64,000 nucleotides of DNA from an uncultured cyanobacterium. GTDB lineage: Bacteria; Cyanobacteriota; Cyanobacteriia; Cyanobacteriales; Nostocaceae. The stretch is taken from positions 4,544,001-4,608,000 of the forward strand of contig OY970166.1 of NCBI GenBank assembly GCA_963706595.1, in the 5' to 3' direction. The position numbers were made by a program. Below are positions 30,001 through 45,000 of the stretch, in pieces; within the stretch, counting starts at the first letter, position 1; every line of letters starts with the position of its first letter.

Positions 30001-33000
30001 AGTCTAGATCCTGTGACGCTTCTTGATATTGACTGTGTTCTTCTCTATGTTTACCTGAAAAATCATCTTCTGGCTGATTATCTTCAAATAAGTCGTCTAA
30101 TTCTGTGTCCTCATCTTCTGAATGTTTTTTGGGTTTGGGACTGATAATTCTGGCTATTTGGAGTTGATAGTAAATTCCTTCAATATCTTTTCTGCTCTGC
30201 TTACCCAATTTTCTTAAAGTCAAGATTTCATCAAACAGAGTATGAATTTCTCGGTCGATATCTACCAATTTTCGGAACTTGGGATTACATCGATTAAATA
30301 TATCTGCGGCTAAGGAACGCATCTGTTCGACAAAATTGTTCAGTTCAGTCCGTTTCCTCTTAATTTGTTTCAATAGCCACTGGTGTTCTTTATCTAAAGT
30401 CTCTAGCCGGATATGGAGAGACGAAAGCGCCAGTGTGGTTGTATTTGGGGACTGGGATGAAGATGTTGATTTTCGCGGCATAAAACAGGCCAGTCTGAAT
30501 AAGTTGACATCTTATACAGATCCTACCGCCAAAAGATTAAGTTTAATCAGTTAATCCAGGCGATCGCATGGGTCAAAATTGCGGGAAACTAAAAGCAGAT
30601 CATGAAGAGAGGAGAACCTAATGAGCTGGACTAAAGTTCTTGCAGCTGATGCACTTGCGCCAAATGGCAGACAAGTGGTAAAAGTTGGCACACGAAAAAT
30701 TCTGCTTGTCAACCACGAAAGTCAACTTTATGCTGTCGATAATACCTGCCCTCATTTAAAAATGCCCATGAAAAATGGGAAAATTACCGAAAGTGGGGCA
30801 ATTGTTTGTCCTATACATCGTAGTGCTTTTGACTTAAGTACTGGGGAAGTACAAGACTGGTGTCCTTGGCCGCCTGTTGTAGGTAAAGTACTTTCAAAGA
30901 TTTCACCGGAGAAGAAACTACCAGTGTTCCCTGTGCGTGTGGAAGAAGGTAGTATTTGGATTGATTTAGAGGAATAGTAGCCTCTAGTAAAAGAGGCAGG
31001 GGAGCAGGGTGTGGGGGGCAGGGGGGAAGACTGAGACGGAGCTTGTACCCCTTCCCCTCTGCCTCTTCGGTGAGGCTAGCAAAAGCGATCGCTTGCCCTC
31101 TTTCCCTTCTAAGCCAGTAAATTTAGTCATCACATCAGGTTGCTATAGTGAATCCCCAATAGTCAATCAGCAGACTTAGCAGTTTTTATACCCTCAAGCT
31201 TCTCTATCCGGTAATTCTGGATTTCATTCTGCGCCACCACTTCACTTCTAAGTAATTTGATTTCAGATGTCATATCAGAAACACGGTTGCCCATACTAAA
31301 ACCACCAGTAATCAAATAGAGTCCTGATTGGGTGGTTATGGTCAAGACTGTGATCAGCATGGCTAATCGTTCGGCGGTCATGGTAAAACCTTTTTAATTA
31401 TTAAGCTGGTTCTTGCCAGGTAAAAATTAGGGAAGAATTGCAGCTTAAATTTACCCGGCTGGGGAAAATCAAAGAACTGGTCGCCAAACCTCAAAATTTG
31501 AGAATTGGCAACCGGCTTATTTGGTAAGTCCCACAAAATTTGCTCAATCCTGCCAGCACTTTTGTAATTTCTGGTAGGTCGAGCCTTGAGAACAACAATT
31601 AATTTGCTCTCATCTTCAGTAAATAAATATGGAATGAGTACAGAATTTAATGGTTTTAAATCAAATCGATACTCATTACCAAACACGAACTGAGTTTCCA
31701 TTTACTTTTTAGCAAGTGAATAAGTTCTACCATGCGGCGAGACGAAACTAGTAGGCTTTTTACTTGCGTTTCCCAAGAATTTCTTAATACTACTAATGGT
31801 AGCGCTGGCAGGAACGGGGACACTTAAGTATTTAACTGCCGTTCCCTTTTTGCTAGCTGCCGATGAATTAGTTCCAGGTAAAGGAACTTTAATGCGTTTA
31901 GCGCCAACGCTCCCTCGAACAGCAATCGTTGACTGTTTTTTTGAGCCTTTAGCTGCCTTTCTAGTAACAGTTGCGTCAGGGACGATTTTAAAGCCCAGTT
32001 TTTCAGCTACAGACCGCAGCATATAAACGTATACCGATTTCGCCCCTTGCCCTCGTCCTTGTCCGGATTCAAATAAAACCGTTGCTCGTGGTCCAATCTT
32101 TTTTCGTTGTGTTGCCATTCAATTGCTCCAATGCTTAGTAATGGTTTTTAGAGATAATCAATTGCGATGATCACAACGTCACCATTGCCGGCGGCTTCAG
32201 AGGTAAAAGGAATATTTGCGCTGATAGTGGCGACTCCAGCTTCCAGGTCGAATTGGACCTGAACGTTGTCCGGCTGGGAATCAGTGGGAACCACAAGTTT
32301 TTCACTAGCAGCCAACAAAGTAGAAATTTCAATGAAGGCTTCCATGATAGTACTAGACTTTAGATCACCGCCGCCATTGACAAAACCAGAATAAGTAGAA
32401 CCCAAGTAATCTTGTGCAACAATTTTGGTAGAACCATCTGTTTGTGCAGTTGCAATAATAGGAATTGTTGCTGCAACTGAAATAGTTCCAGTGTCGAACG
32501 AAACGGTGGTAGCTAGGTTTCTTCGTGGGGTTAGTCCTGGGTTAGCTCCATTCCGAGCTTGTTCTGCCGCATCCATAGCCCTGGCCACTTCAAAGAATGC
32601 CGATGGAATTTGTGTAGCGTTTAAAGTTCCCGCAGTTCCTGGGTCAAATGTACTCATTCGTTCCTCGCTGTAAAAAATGTAGTAACCGTATTTGTAATCA
32701 GTTGTAGCCCGGAATTGTCCCAAATTGGCGGGGACAAACCAATCTAGATTCTTTGGGCTTAAGGTCGAAGAACCCACCGCAGTTAAAGAGACTGAACCGG
32801 GAATAAATAACTTATTCTGCCGAAATACTAAATTAAATGCGGATTTCGAGAAAAAATCTTGAATTGGTGGTGGTACATTATCAATTACTTCCTGCCAGTC
32901 AATGCTTGCAGTTTTTCCATTGGGGAATGTAATCGATGGGGCAGACTGGCTTTTGTTAGAACTTTTAGTTTTGACTATAGGAGTCTTAGGGAGTAAAATA

Positions 33001-42000: not shown

Positions 42001-45000
42001 CTGCGGCTTAGTCATCTTAACCGAATACAATCCCCCATCATCAACCGCATCCGTCAGGATTTGGCATGGCAGTTCCCAGAAGTTGCGCTTGTCCGTTCAA
42101 TTCGGTGTTCTGGAAGAGTGCCTTTACTTTGGGGATGGCTAGCTGGTCAGCGTGAAAGTAAAAAATATGATCGCATTTACGCCACCACCGCAGGATTAGG
42201 ATTAACCGATTCGGTAAGGTTTCACGCGCAGCGCATTTGTAGCTTACAGGCAGAAGAGCAAATTTTAGAAGATGAACTAGCAGAAATTCTCATAGATGAA
42301 CGGTTCACTCGTTACCGTGATATTTTCGCAAATTTCCAGTTTGGGGAGAGACTGCAAGCTGTGATTCTCTCCCAAATTTACCCCTTAGAAAATTTCTTGG
42401 GTGAGGATGGTAAACCAGAAATCAAAATCCGCAAAGGTAGGAAATCTGGTAAACCAACCAAACGCCACCTGTCACTAAGGCGATTTCAGAAAGCTTTGGG
42501 TGTAGCGCCTTCTCAAGAATCAAGCGGCGATATTTCTAAATCTAAAGTTTCCGGTGGATCGGCTTTGTGCCGTCGCGCCCTTTGGCAGTGGGTTTTTAGT
42601 GCAGTTGAACCTGCCAAACGCCGCACGAATCCCATGTTAAAAGAATTGGGAGAATTTCTTGATACCGAGAAATTAGCAGGCAAACCAGTCAAACTGGTAC
42701 GAATGCGAGTAGCTGTTAAAGCTGTAAAGCTGTTATTTAAAATGTTGACTAGTAACGTTATCAGTCAATAACACAATGGTGGCGTAGGGAGTCGGTACAA
42801 TACACGTAACAATTACGCCGCCACTATTTTATTAGACTGAAGATGGCAAAGTTATCAGTGGAAAATTAAATCATGCTCGAAAATCGAGACTATACACTCA
42901 TTATCGACAAAAGCGGTAGTATGGCTACCCCAGATCAGAAAGGTGGTAGAACTAGATGGGTATCAGCACAAGAATCTACCCTAGCCTTAGCGAGTAAGTG
43001 CGAGCAATTTGATCCAGATGGCATCACTGTATATTTATTTTCTGGTAGATTCAAGCGCTACGATAATGTTACAGCCGCTAAAGTAACACAAATCTTTAAA
43101 GAAAATGACCCCTCTGGTTCTACAGATTTAGCAGGTGTGTTGAAACACGCCACGGATGATTACTTTCAACGTAAGAATGCGGGTCAAACGAAGCCCAATG
43201 GTGAAATTATTTTGGTAGTTACTGACGGCGAACCGGATGACCGTAAAGCGGTAATGAAGGTAATTATTGAAGCTTCTCGCCGGATGGATAATGATGAGGA
43301 ACTAGGTATTTCCTTCATTCAAGTTGGTACAGATGCACAAGCTACTCGCTTTCTGAAAGTGTTAGATGATGACCTCCAAGGTGCTGGAGCAAAATTTGAT
43401 ATCTGCGACACAATTACAATGGATGATATGGAGGATTTAAGTTTATCGGAAGTGCTACTAAATGCCATTACGGACTAGCGACCGCTGCGCGGAAGTCAAA
43501 AGTTAAAAGTCAAAAGTTAAAAGAACTTTTTGAAATGTATCCCTATTTACGCCGTGAATTACTAGCTTAAAAGCATGGATTCTCTTGATAAGCTGCTAGA
43601 TGAACTCAAAGCTGAATATGATCAAACCAAACCCGCAGCATCACAACCCCAGAAAAATTCAGCCAAACCATTTACCCCACAACCACCAAAATCGTTATCT
43701 TTAGTCGATAGCCTTTTGGCAGAAGTTGGGGCTGATTTTGCAGCACAAGATGAAGTGGAGGAGTTTAAAAAACAGCAAGAATTAGCACAGGAAAAAAATC
43801 GACAAGCCCAAATCAAAGCCCAACAAATAGCAGCTTTGAAAGTTGAAGCAGAAACATGGTTGAAAAAATTAGATCCGTTTTCTTCAGAAGGACTTTGGTT
43901 TGAAAGGTTTGCTGAAAGTTACCCTTCAAAATTAGAGGCGGCGATTGAATATTTACAAAGCAACGAATCAACTCAAACTTAACTTGCTAGTCGTTGATTG
44001 ACAAAAAGTGTTCAACAGCCCATTTATGCATTGCATAAAGAATTGGGATCAGACTTTTTCCCAAACTTGTCAATGAGTATTCTACCTTTGGGGGGATTTG
44101 TGGATAAACTTCACGATGTACAATACCGTCTTCTTCCATTTCTCGGAGTTGCTGAGTCAGCATTTTTTGGGTAATTCCCGGTAAGCCTCGCTGCAATTCC
44201 CCAAAGCGTTTGGTCTGTGAAATTAATTCTCTAATAATTAAAACTTTCCAACGCCCACCAATTACCTTTAATGTAGTTTCAACTTCGCAAGTGAGCCTGA
44301 TGTCGGTTTTTGCTTCAGCTTTCATAAGTTAATTTTGAGTAAGTACTGTACTTTTAAGTGCCTACTTTTTCTATTAACTATACTTGATTTAAAGTCTATT
44401 TAGTAACTTTTTAGCAAATTAATTTGGGATGTTTCCTACCCATAAATATGGAGGTGAATGTTAAATTTGACAGCAGGGATTTGGCGGCATATTTAGCAAG
44501 TGGAACATTAGCAAAAATTTAGCGGCTAATTTTTTAAATTCAGAGTAAAAGTAAGTCGATAATCTACAATACCTCTAGAAATTATCTAGAGGTTTTTCTC
44601 AATAGTTCAGATAAGTTTGTTGCCAAAAACTTCGCTTTCAACTAACTAAATTTGCAATGCTTTAAACCATTTAGTCACAACTGTGTTAATGGTTTGTTTA
44701 ATTTGATGTTTGCGATACCATTTTTGAAAAGCCATTTCGTATTCTTCACCTTTCGTTTGAAAGGTATTCCAAATATCCAGCCCTAATGTCAAGCCGCAAA
44801 ATAGTAAAAAATACAATGACCAAGCAAGACCGCCACCACCGACGATATCCACTAGCATCAAAAAACTGTTAATAATTGCATAATTACCAACACGTTTCTT
44901 AAATCTGCCGATGCGGTAGGAATTGAAAGCTTCTCTCTGTTGCATTTCGCTATGTTGCGATCGCCAGTCAATTTCTGCTAGGTTTAGAGAATCGGGTGAT

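Follow-up and report, generated by a model that had tools for sequence, protein, structure and literature searches.

An 11.7-kb cyanobacterial integrative element with a predicted RNA-guided IS110-family integrase and hammerhead ribozyme, possibly a small temperate virus

The accessible text on IS621 (Durrant et al. 2024, PMC11208160) describes a guide-RNA promoter that is formed by the joined element ends. For four inoviruses, Neisseria Nf and Thermus phiOH16, Zuza8, and Zuza27, integration by IS110-family/Piv enzymes is thought likely (PMC11437467, in the parts available). The role of bacterial hammerhead ribozymes is posed as an open question in the available text of PMC6155905, and the portion at hand of a preprint (10.64898/2026.10.21.760802) reports a divergent hammerhead cluster without naming its neighbours, which could be the same motif as the one described below. 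The main text of a study of large IS110 elements (Hu et al., 10.64898/2026.08.14.744561), as far as available, contains none of the terms cyanobacter, ribozyme, and viral. Within the literature we could reach, which included few subscription papers, none connected a bridge RNA with a natural hammerhead, and none described the elements reported here. We analysed a 64,000-nucleotide window of an uncultured cyanobacterium of the Nostocaceae and estimate, at a probability of about 0.55 and from sequence comparison, that an 11,689-bp element within it is an integrated small temperate cyanobacterial virus that inserts itself by means of an IS110-family bridge recombinase.

The element, with core GAA at 31150 and 42839, occupies a site that is otherwise empty, as an earlier note on this DNA had proposed: in all 10 same-genus genomes examined the flanks were joined within 90-277 bp. 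Genes, collagen repeats (18-nt units), and 42-nt repeats were also found where that note had put them (Table 1). The empty site is restored without duplication, the junctions (LT-RD and LD-RT) share a short core, and the reconstructed target was present exactly in genome G001 (locus L008). Our search for an att site as an exact direct repeat likewise found none; the site is a 3-bp core, and an att does exist as the 3-nt GAA with guide-matched half-sites. No tRNA was found as insertion target. In sister elements the same terminus comes after the guide-matched host flank. The bridge-delimited elements (n = 34) measured 9.2-19.1 kb; none was a plain insertion sequence (<~2.5 kb, transposition functions only), and no predicted left end fell within 3 kb of the recombinase.

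Table 1. Features of the element and its flanks, in window coordinates
Feature	Position	Strand	Remarks
Left flank, Rieske gene	end 30977		
Left junction	31144..31158	+	Host left target TATAGT; core GAA 31150-31152; conserved element terminus TCCCCA
g04105, 72 aa, small membrane/coiled-coil protein	31163..31381	-	Last gene of late-type operon
g04106, 107 aa	31378..31701	-	Family in 27/34 elements
g04107, 138 aa, basic protein	31702..32118	-	Family in 9/34 elements
g04108, 339 aa	32148..33167	-	N-terminal HTH fused to 169-aa tandem-repeat domain
g04108 tandem-repeat domain	32148-32657	-	Own ATG, GAGG upstream
g04109, 918 aa	33164..35920	-	Hydrophobic N-terminus, collagen repeat, 14-aa coiled-coil repeat, 200-aa C-terminal domain
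g04109 200-aa C-terminal domain	33164-33766	-	Family is the most universal late gene
Cys-rich protein, 118 aa	35921..36277	-	Late operon; relatives found
First late-operon gene, 117 aa	36277..36630	-	Family in 26/34 elements; slot filled in 33/34
Conserved dif/res-like site	36684..36708	+	Upstream of tyrosine recombinase; right arm TTATGTAAA
Short tyrosine recombinase, 193 aa	36832..37413	+	Pfam Phage_integrase, E 9e-16; catalytic motifs intact
289-aa protein	37496..38365	-	Backbone family, 30/34 elements; no library match
295-aa winged-HTH protein, like replication initiator	38369..39256	-	PHROG 678 'replication initiation O-like', E 5e-5
KGK-domain protein, accessory	39277..39594	+	Pfam KGK, E 3e-10
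110-aa ORF	39647..39979	-	Overlaps 69-aa ribbon-helix-helix repressor ORF 39754-39963 (Pfam RHH_1, E 4e-4)
Three 20-bp operator-like repeats	39997..40086	.	Overlap rightward sigma70-like promoter, TTGACA at 40028
Three small early-type genes, 78/94/138 aa	40350..41240	+	Same orientation as RNA and recombinase
Type I hammerhead ribozyme, loop II pseudoknot	41321..41383	+	Predicted cut after GUC at 41371
Bridge RNA	41372..41560	+	5' hairpin, then target loop, then donor loop; z -3.1
Bridge RNA target loop	LTG 41410-41416; RTG 41436-41443		
Bridge RNA donor loop	LDG 41500-41507; RDG 41526-41534		
IS110-family recombinase, 395 aa	41584..42771	+	D8/E59/D103/D106 and S314 motifs intact
Right junction	42833..42847	+	Element end TAGACT; core GAA 42839-42841; host right target GATGGC
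Right flank, vWA gene	start 42873		

The recombinase gene is present in a single copy in the genome, and its product combines DEDD RuvC-like and serine domains (NCBIfam NF051857, 532 bits against a cut-off of 180; Pfam PF01548 and PF02371). The non-coding DNA upstream of it, at 41321-41560, encodes a bridge RNA whose target loop corresponds to the host empty-site sequence and whose donor loop corresponds to both element ends, 11,689 bp apart. Across related loci, 31 of 39 distinct guide sets had a left guide that matched the host DNA flanking the far terminus, against a mean of 1.8 and at most 8 in 10,000 shuffles. Counted by locus, 34 of 41 matched, including one read by eye and one with a wobble pair, and 7 had no match. 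The right guide matched in 37 of 45 (on average 3.7 and at most 12 after shuffling), a test slightly favoured by choosing the own junction among up to four candidates; because sister elements are related, such counts overstate independence. Donor guides also covaried with the ends, with RDG GGTAGTTC beside terminus GAA-CTACC in one sister (L068) and LDG AGAAGGAA beside end TAGAAG-GAA in another (L341). Of 8 loci outside the family that have long upstream DNA, 5 matched.

One genome (G401) holds two copies head to tail, identical over 4622 compared bases, with the predicted circle junction between them and guide-matched flanks at both outer sides. The recombinase gene runs straight into the predicted circle junction in 5 of 80 metagenome loci. 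Among 80 mapped genome-scan loci, element genes were present at 9 and a tandem at 1; another 40 loci, which were shorter, yielded no further tandem, and no closed circular form was found. A 14.5-kb contig bearing the junction motif was rejected, having neither a terminal repeat nor a recombinase before the motif, and two contig sets with a 6% share held only diverged relatives and nothing on excision. Taken on sequence, it is highly probable that the whole 11.7-kb unit integrates under RNA guidance and that the right-end IS110 gene serves as the element's integrase rather than being a passenger. The earlier note had regarded that gene as incidental, which guides that match both far ends and covary with the junctions contradict; by taking the integration genes as simply interchangeable, it overlooked the central feature, a bridge RNA, hammerhead, and IS110-family recombinase that together define the ends of the whole element.

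A strict descriptor placed a hammerhead at the 5' end of the RNA in 31 of 52 loci and matched once in the element's own genome, at the window copy itself, which has one extra core base (CUGAACGA). Stems I and III and the pseudoknot were 92% paired, with 90 double changes compared to 26.5 in shuffled data; this count covers 28 loci picked from descriptor matches and omits the larger part of stem II, where the alignment loses register. Across the family we found the conserved core and three stems with covariation. The Rfam hammerhead models gave no match at gathering score (best 14.9 bits, E 3.1). For the family as a whole, it is likely that the hammerhead matures the guide RNA, probably by cutting it out of a long transcript. 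We propose this processing because the joined element ends lie far from the guide: the RNA is ~10 kb from the left end, so a circle-junction promoter of the type described in the available IS621 text cannot drive it.

The leftward late operon comprises seven genes, among them several conserved novel proteins. Its last gene had no Pfam or PHROG match; a family in the equivalent position (family 15) had a weak Rz-like spanin match (E 7e-4), and the slot may be holin- or spanin-like. The g04106 protein is probably beta-rich, with DUF1883 as its only Atlas lead (score 0.84; all Atlas leads were below 0.9), and the g04107 slot is elsewhere taken by other proteins of 120-200 aa. As the earlier note had held, the C-terminal 169 aa of g04108 form a tandem repeat, modelled as two helix-plus-three-strand units (pLDDT 97.7). 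That note took only this part as family-wide; the close subfamily, however, keeps the 339-aa frame (most open frames there span 329-369 aa), and the N-terminal part corresponds to a stand-alone HTH gene of 64-72 aa in distant elements (hhalign 93%, E 3e-7). A reading of the 117-aa first late gene as a single g04108 repeat was dropped, being without profile support. Collagen repeats in g04109 (Pfam Collagen, E 1.5e-45) account for its PHROG tail-fibre matches. The family of its C-terminal domain (model pLDDT 89.5), together with family 10, occurs in 34/34 elements, a link made by iterated profiles in a small local set and not significant in direct profile comparison. In fold searches, the g04108 domain reached a best PDB Z of 3.8 with no BFVD match at E<=0.001; the g04109 domain matched nothing in the PDB (highest Z 4.5, from one helix) and had one BFVD match, to an unnamed protein (A0A510E869, E 2e-4, TM 0.57, 13% identity). 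A missing fold match does not prove a new fold for either domain, and PDB sequence searches gave no useful match.

On the early side, the right arm of the dif/res-like site occurs in 17/34 elements and resembles the XerD arm of dif; this would be a resolution site, and the short tyrosine recombinase is probably a multimer resolvase or invertase. Sisters fill the winged-HTH slot with another wHTH family or a DnaB-like helicase. The operator-like repeats may mark the switch region; the promoter scan as a whole was not above shuffles (26 vs. 22.2). The 78-, 94-, and 138-aa early-type families occur in 21, 8, and 18 of 34 elements.

Together, these features suggest a cycle in which a repressor switch at ~40,000 would govern a rightward early transcript, from which the hammerhead would cut the 5' end of the guide. 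Recombinase and guide would then excise a circle with the junction TAGACT-GAA-TCCCC and place it into sites that match the guide. Replication of the circle would rely on the element's own initiator, the short tyrosine recombinase would resolve multimers at the dif-like site, and the late operon would build a non-tailed particle with a collagen/coiled-coil fibre.

Gene order was uniform, with a divergent early/late layout fixed across the 34 elements. Endolysins were recognised in 5/34 sisters (GH108 family in 3, amidase family in 2, with one representative of each scanned); the window element has none, and none was recognised in 29/34. A CRISPR spacer of host G000 matches sister L068 at 29/32 bases. 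These endolysins and the spacer strengthen the virus reading. Capsid, portal, terminase, and Zot families had no match among window proteins or 78 and 57 family representatives. Specifically, no Pfam or PHROG match pointed to the HK97 capsid, portal, or large terminase of Caudoviricetes (two late proteins were folded), the g04108 and g04109 domains, the only two folded, did not match a jelly-roll major capsid, and the structural operon lacks the Zot-like ATPase of Inoviridae. The window element encodes no P-loop protein; P-loop family 36, in the early arm of 7/34 elements, had no Zot match. The earlier proposal of an undescribed, widespread integrative family with virus-like late genes is supported, whereas its step to a virus lacks a capsid or packaging-motor match. 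For the element making its own particles we would give even odds. The fuller picture is tentative: a new realm-level small temperate virus, common in filamentous cyanobacteria, with a new-fold particle, a programmable bridge integrase whose guide a hammerhead cuts from the early transcript, and retargeting of the attachment site by a few guide-base mutations.

PICI/PLE satellites are similar in size, with an integrase at one end and a regulator and replication module, and without capsid or large terminase. A phage satellite that integrates by RNA guidance, depends on a helper for excision and replication, and adds its own fibre or adaptor proteins to a helper capsid would share the 9-19 kb size, the terminal integrase, and the repressor switch with initiator, and would fit the missing capsid and terminase matches and the interchangeable late modules. 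Still, the full seven-gene late operon with its conserved novel proteins speaks against it, no small-terminase or capsid-remodelling family was recognised, and no helper was identified. We rate this reading as unlikely.

More doubtful still is a non-viral integrative plasmid, inserted by the same RNA guidance and spreading as naked DNA, with the late operon as a surface fibre or secretion structure. Most elements lack a packaging motor, and large cargo-bearing IS110 elements of plasmid origin are known (10.64898/2026.08.14.744561, as available). The closed plasmid pMIC7113.08 does carry both a g04108 relative and an integrase, as the earlier note had stated, and viral collections held no relatives (none in IMG/VR by protein, 0 related among 45 junction-pattern matches there, and no match among GenBank phages). 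Against this stand the endolysin families inside elements, the fixed divergent layout in place of varied adaptive cargo, and the lack of any match to relaxase or type IV secretion families. The earlier view, in which integration is the work of the tyrosine recombinase and IS110 arrived later as a passenger, is hardly tenable: this recombinase is present with intact motifs in 34/34 elements, and distant g04108 elements mostly lack an IS110 terminus (4/20 have it) and in some cases carry longer integrases, but junction identity is just 3 bp, the covarying guides already contradict it, no stand-alone 2-kb copy appeared among loci picked by recombinase similarity alone, and 16/20 close loci have the GAATCCCCA terminus.

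The g04108 family is indeed widespread, occurring with an 8-sequence profile in 50/389 family genomes and 21/68 genera, and forming 219 clusters; the earlier counts of 75, 26, and 336, from a deeper profile, were not reproduced. Its supposed fixed block with the g04109 family was seen in 20/20 close loci but only 13/20 distant ones, and in 7 of 20 distant loci g04108 is antisense to its neighbours. As a marker it is not universal, being found in only 15/34 bridge-delimited elements. The recombinase clade is present in 167/389 genomes of the host family, so in nitrogen-fixing cyanobacteria such elements may rank with the most common proviruses to have been overlooked.

An RNA-guided integrase combined with a self-cutting ribozyme could point to a small virus of a new kind and to a task for ribozymes in bacteria, with a testable function in maturing a guide RNA. 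Bridge recombinases would in nature act as dedicated integrases, serving elements of 9-19 kb whose guides match fully on both sides, and this ready orthologue set would move large cargo with natural guides already reprogrammed to dozens of sites. The late proteins have no solved fold.

Compared to PICI/PLE satellites, the element has an RNA-guided integrase and a large late operon without known satellite families. Going by the accessible parts of the papers cited here, it shares with IS621 (PMC11208160) the DEDD and serine recombinase, an upstream RNA with a 5' hairpin and target and donor loops, LTG/LDG in top-strand sense with RTG/RDG complementary, the core in all four guides, and discontinuous right-donor pairing. 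By contrast, it spans 9-19 kb rather than ~1.3 kb, its conserved core is GAA rather than CT, and the ribozyme at the RNA 5' end is a natural hammerhead, whereas those described there are engineered HDV. Like the elements of Hu et al. (10.64898/2026.08.14.744561), these are many-kb IS110-bounded units with tandem duplication and, as predicted for ours, whole-unit mobility below 20 kb. The cargo there varies, derives from plasmids, and is resistance-rich, and the boundaries are half-matched, whereas in our elements all four guides, two donor and two target, find their match and the cargo has one conserved virus-like layout. As in the IS110/Piv inoviruses (PMC11437467), the putative provirus has an IS110-family integrase gene at one end; unlike in those, no Zot-like ATPase, rolling-circle endonuclease, or inovirus coat family was found in the element, some members carry endolysins, and the available text describes no bridge RNA. 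Finally, the ribozyme has the CUGANGA/GAAA/NUH core, three stems, and prophage-like DNA association of prokaryotic hammerheads (PMC6155905), but differs in its type I topology, its Watson-Crick pseudoknot to the 3' strand, and its fixed position heading a guide RNA, which would give it a concrete role.

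The element sits between a Rieske gene and a vWA gene whose flanks meet within 90-277 bp in 10/10 same-genus genomes, so the insertion at an otherwise empty site described in the earlier note is real. The empty site of one compared genome (G001) reads TATAGT GAA GATGGC, the left junction of the window element TATAGT GAA TCCCCA, and the right TAGACT GAA GATGGC, giving a unit of 11,689 bp between GAA cores. Because the junctions have just these three bases in common, the att repeat had been missed. That note had also treated the g04108 block as the family marker and the IS110-family gene as incidental; on the latter, key part it was a misreading, as the guides described below match the element ends. 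All window-element genes except the KGK gene are single-copy in their own genome.

Features of the window element and its surroundings (window coordinates)
Feature	Start	End	Strand	Remarks
Ubiquitin-conjugating-like ORF	25685	26194		Low-GC cluster, 25685-28269
JAB-motif ORF	26184	26861		Same cluster
Rieske gene		30977
TATAGT hexamer	31144	31149
Left GAA core	31150	31152
Leftward operon	36630	31163	minus	Seven genes
Further genes				Short tyrosine recombinase; 289-aa protein; winged-HTH protein resembling a replication initiator
Further parts				Repressor with three operator-like repeats; three small rightward genes
Right part				340 bp of non-coding DNA, then IS110-family gene
Proposed self-cleavage	41371
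TAGACT hexamer	42833	42838
Right GAA core	42839	42841
vWA gene	42873

Outside the element, the low-GC cluster resembles bacterial ubiquitin-like defence operons by motifs identified by eye. Both junction hexamers resemble -10 boxes 5' of the vWA gene, and insertion may therefore swap the promoter box of this host gene.

The non-coding DNA 5' of the IS110 gene is predicted to form two long stems that contain internal loops (z -3.1). In the first loop, the left side (TAGTGAA) corresponds to the left target plus core and the right side (CCATCTTC) to the complement of the core plus the right target. In the second, the left side (AGACTGAA) corresponds to the right end of the element together with the core, and the right side (GGGTGATTC) to the complement of the core plus the left terminus, with one base bulged. 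Judged from sequence, the element shows those traits of an IS110 bridge system that can be tested in this way.

To compare guides with junctions, we sampled 40 loci around g04108 relatives and 40 picked by recombinase similarity only; the recombinase was present in 55 loci, window included. Before counting, we left out two with an incomplete gene start, two without a target loop, and four whose donor loop the parser missed, and the left test additionally omitted six with <11 kb upstream, leaving 41. The conserved terminus followed host bases matching the left guide in 34 of these (one of them through a wobble pair, another as judged by eye) and failed to do so in seven. With duplicates removed, 31/39 left junctions matched, compared to a shuffled mean of 1.8 and maximum of 8 under the same selection; on the right, 37/45 matched (shuffled mean 3.7, maximum 12), a count slightly favoured by choice among candidate junctions. 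Donor guides likewise covary with element ends (sister elements L068 and L341), and in other families 5/8 loci with long upstream DNA match their guides. We consider RNA-guided integration of the whole unit strongly supported by sequence, with a probability of 0.93. The recombinase clade occurs in 167/389 family genomes and 28/301 phylum genomes.

Whole units were also found in tandem. Calothrix sp. FI2-JRJ7 (G401, locus L230) carries two head-to-tail copies with a period of 15,393 bp and no difference over 4622 compared bases; the right end, GAA, and left terminus meet at their joint, and the outer flanks match the guides. A circle-derived assembly artefact would imply the identical junction. 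The recombinase gene runs straight into this junction in 5/80 metagenome loci, and no closed circle was found. A T at -6 is kept in 33/34 left flanks, though outside the 7-nt guide.

Several sister loci add detail. In L114, L128, and L142, the left flank is the same as the right end of an element (TAGACT or TAGAGT), which may reflect insertion at sisters' ends or tandem formation; L114's own guide specifies that target. An otherwise empty site (L321, G006:C1:4642500-4643200) has the right-junction form TAGACT GAA GATGGC in place of host TATAGT, which a previous occupant may have left behind as a scar. Two diverged elements at different sites in one genome (L338 and L339, G535) have 3.7-kb right arms that are 99% identical and share a bridge RNA, which is module exchange. 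The hammerhead and target loop are missing from L049, and L047 has no such RNA at all; L048, a sister from the same genome, keeps an intact RNA with a left target identical to L049's and might supply it in trans.

The RNA begins with CCGC CUGA(N)GA, stem II, GAAA, stem III, GUC, and GCGG, followed by bases pairing with loop II, a sequence that folds as a type I hammerhead with pseudoknot. A strict descriptor matched 31/52 loci and, across the 5.57-Mb own genome, only the window element. By eye, 20 of the misses were mostly variants (short stem I, bulged stem III, stem II insert), and a few seemed decayed. Across 28 hits, stems I and III and the pseudoknot were 92% paired, compared to 30-37% in slid controls, with 90 double changes vs. 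26.5 shuffled. An Rfam search did not detect the ribozyme. The window copy, like L141, has one extra core base, making its activity uncertain. Six loci (L043, L116, L131, L132, L136, L138) carry hairpin inserts between core and stem II, mostly with GCGATCGC, and three with more distant recombinases (L344, L345, L147) keep the hammerhead with differently built guide RNAs. In IS621, the RNA promoter arises from joined element ends (PMC11208160). As ~10 kb separate the window RNA from the left end and it lies at the operon tail, we propose that self-cleavage would free its 5' end; ribozyme maturation of the guide is likely.

All 34 elements examined share the same layout and short tyrosine recombinase, with at least three versions of the late operon. 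The g04108 repeat occurs in 15/34, the g04106 family in 27/34, and an occupied first late-gene slot in 33/34, while the g04109 C-terminal domain and family 10 together cover 34/34 by iterated local profiles; direct comparison of these two was not significant. The folded domains of g04108 and g04109, confidently modelled, had no match among solved structures. An IS110-group terminus accompanies 16/20 close g04108 loci vs. 4/20 distant ones, and plasmid pMIC7113.08 carries a tyrosine integrase and gave no hit to IS110. The g04108 family is therefore not confined to the IS110 group, and there are two overlapping sets, one being a virus-like late module and the other an RNA-guided module for integration. 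Some g04108 relatives lie antisense within a different late operon (L070-L073, L077, L081, L082), and others are single-repeat forms of 79-84 aa (L074-L076, L078-L080). A dif-like site, at which the tyrosine recombinase probably resolves multimers, occurs in 17/34 elements.

We lean toward a self-contained, non-tailed temperate virus, for which a filamentous or pleomorphic particle would suit the two-fold length spread. A spacer in a CRISPR array (G000:C1:2285042-2286106) matches the left end of L068 at 29/32 bases, and endolysin families occur in 5/34 elements, the window element having none. Neither the window proteins nor family representatives gave a hit to capsid, portal, terminase, Zot, relaxase, or type IV secretion families. 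A phage satellite is unlikely, and a non-viral integrative plasmid somewhat less likely still. Strictly speaking, the element is not an insertion sequence, as delimited elements span 9.2-19.1 kb and none has its left end <3 kb from the recombinase.

The literature covered, with preprint supplements and most subscription papers outside its scope, yielded no description of these elements and no natural hammerhead paired with bridge RNA. The family is probably viral and uses bridge recombination in a new variant form. Precedents are offered by large IS110 units (10.64898/2026.08.14.744561) and IS110-integrating inoviruses (PMC11437467). The window RNA has the loop layout defined in IS621 (PMC11208160), but the donor here is the entire element.
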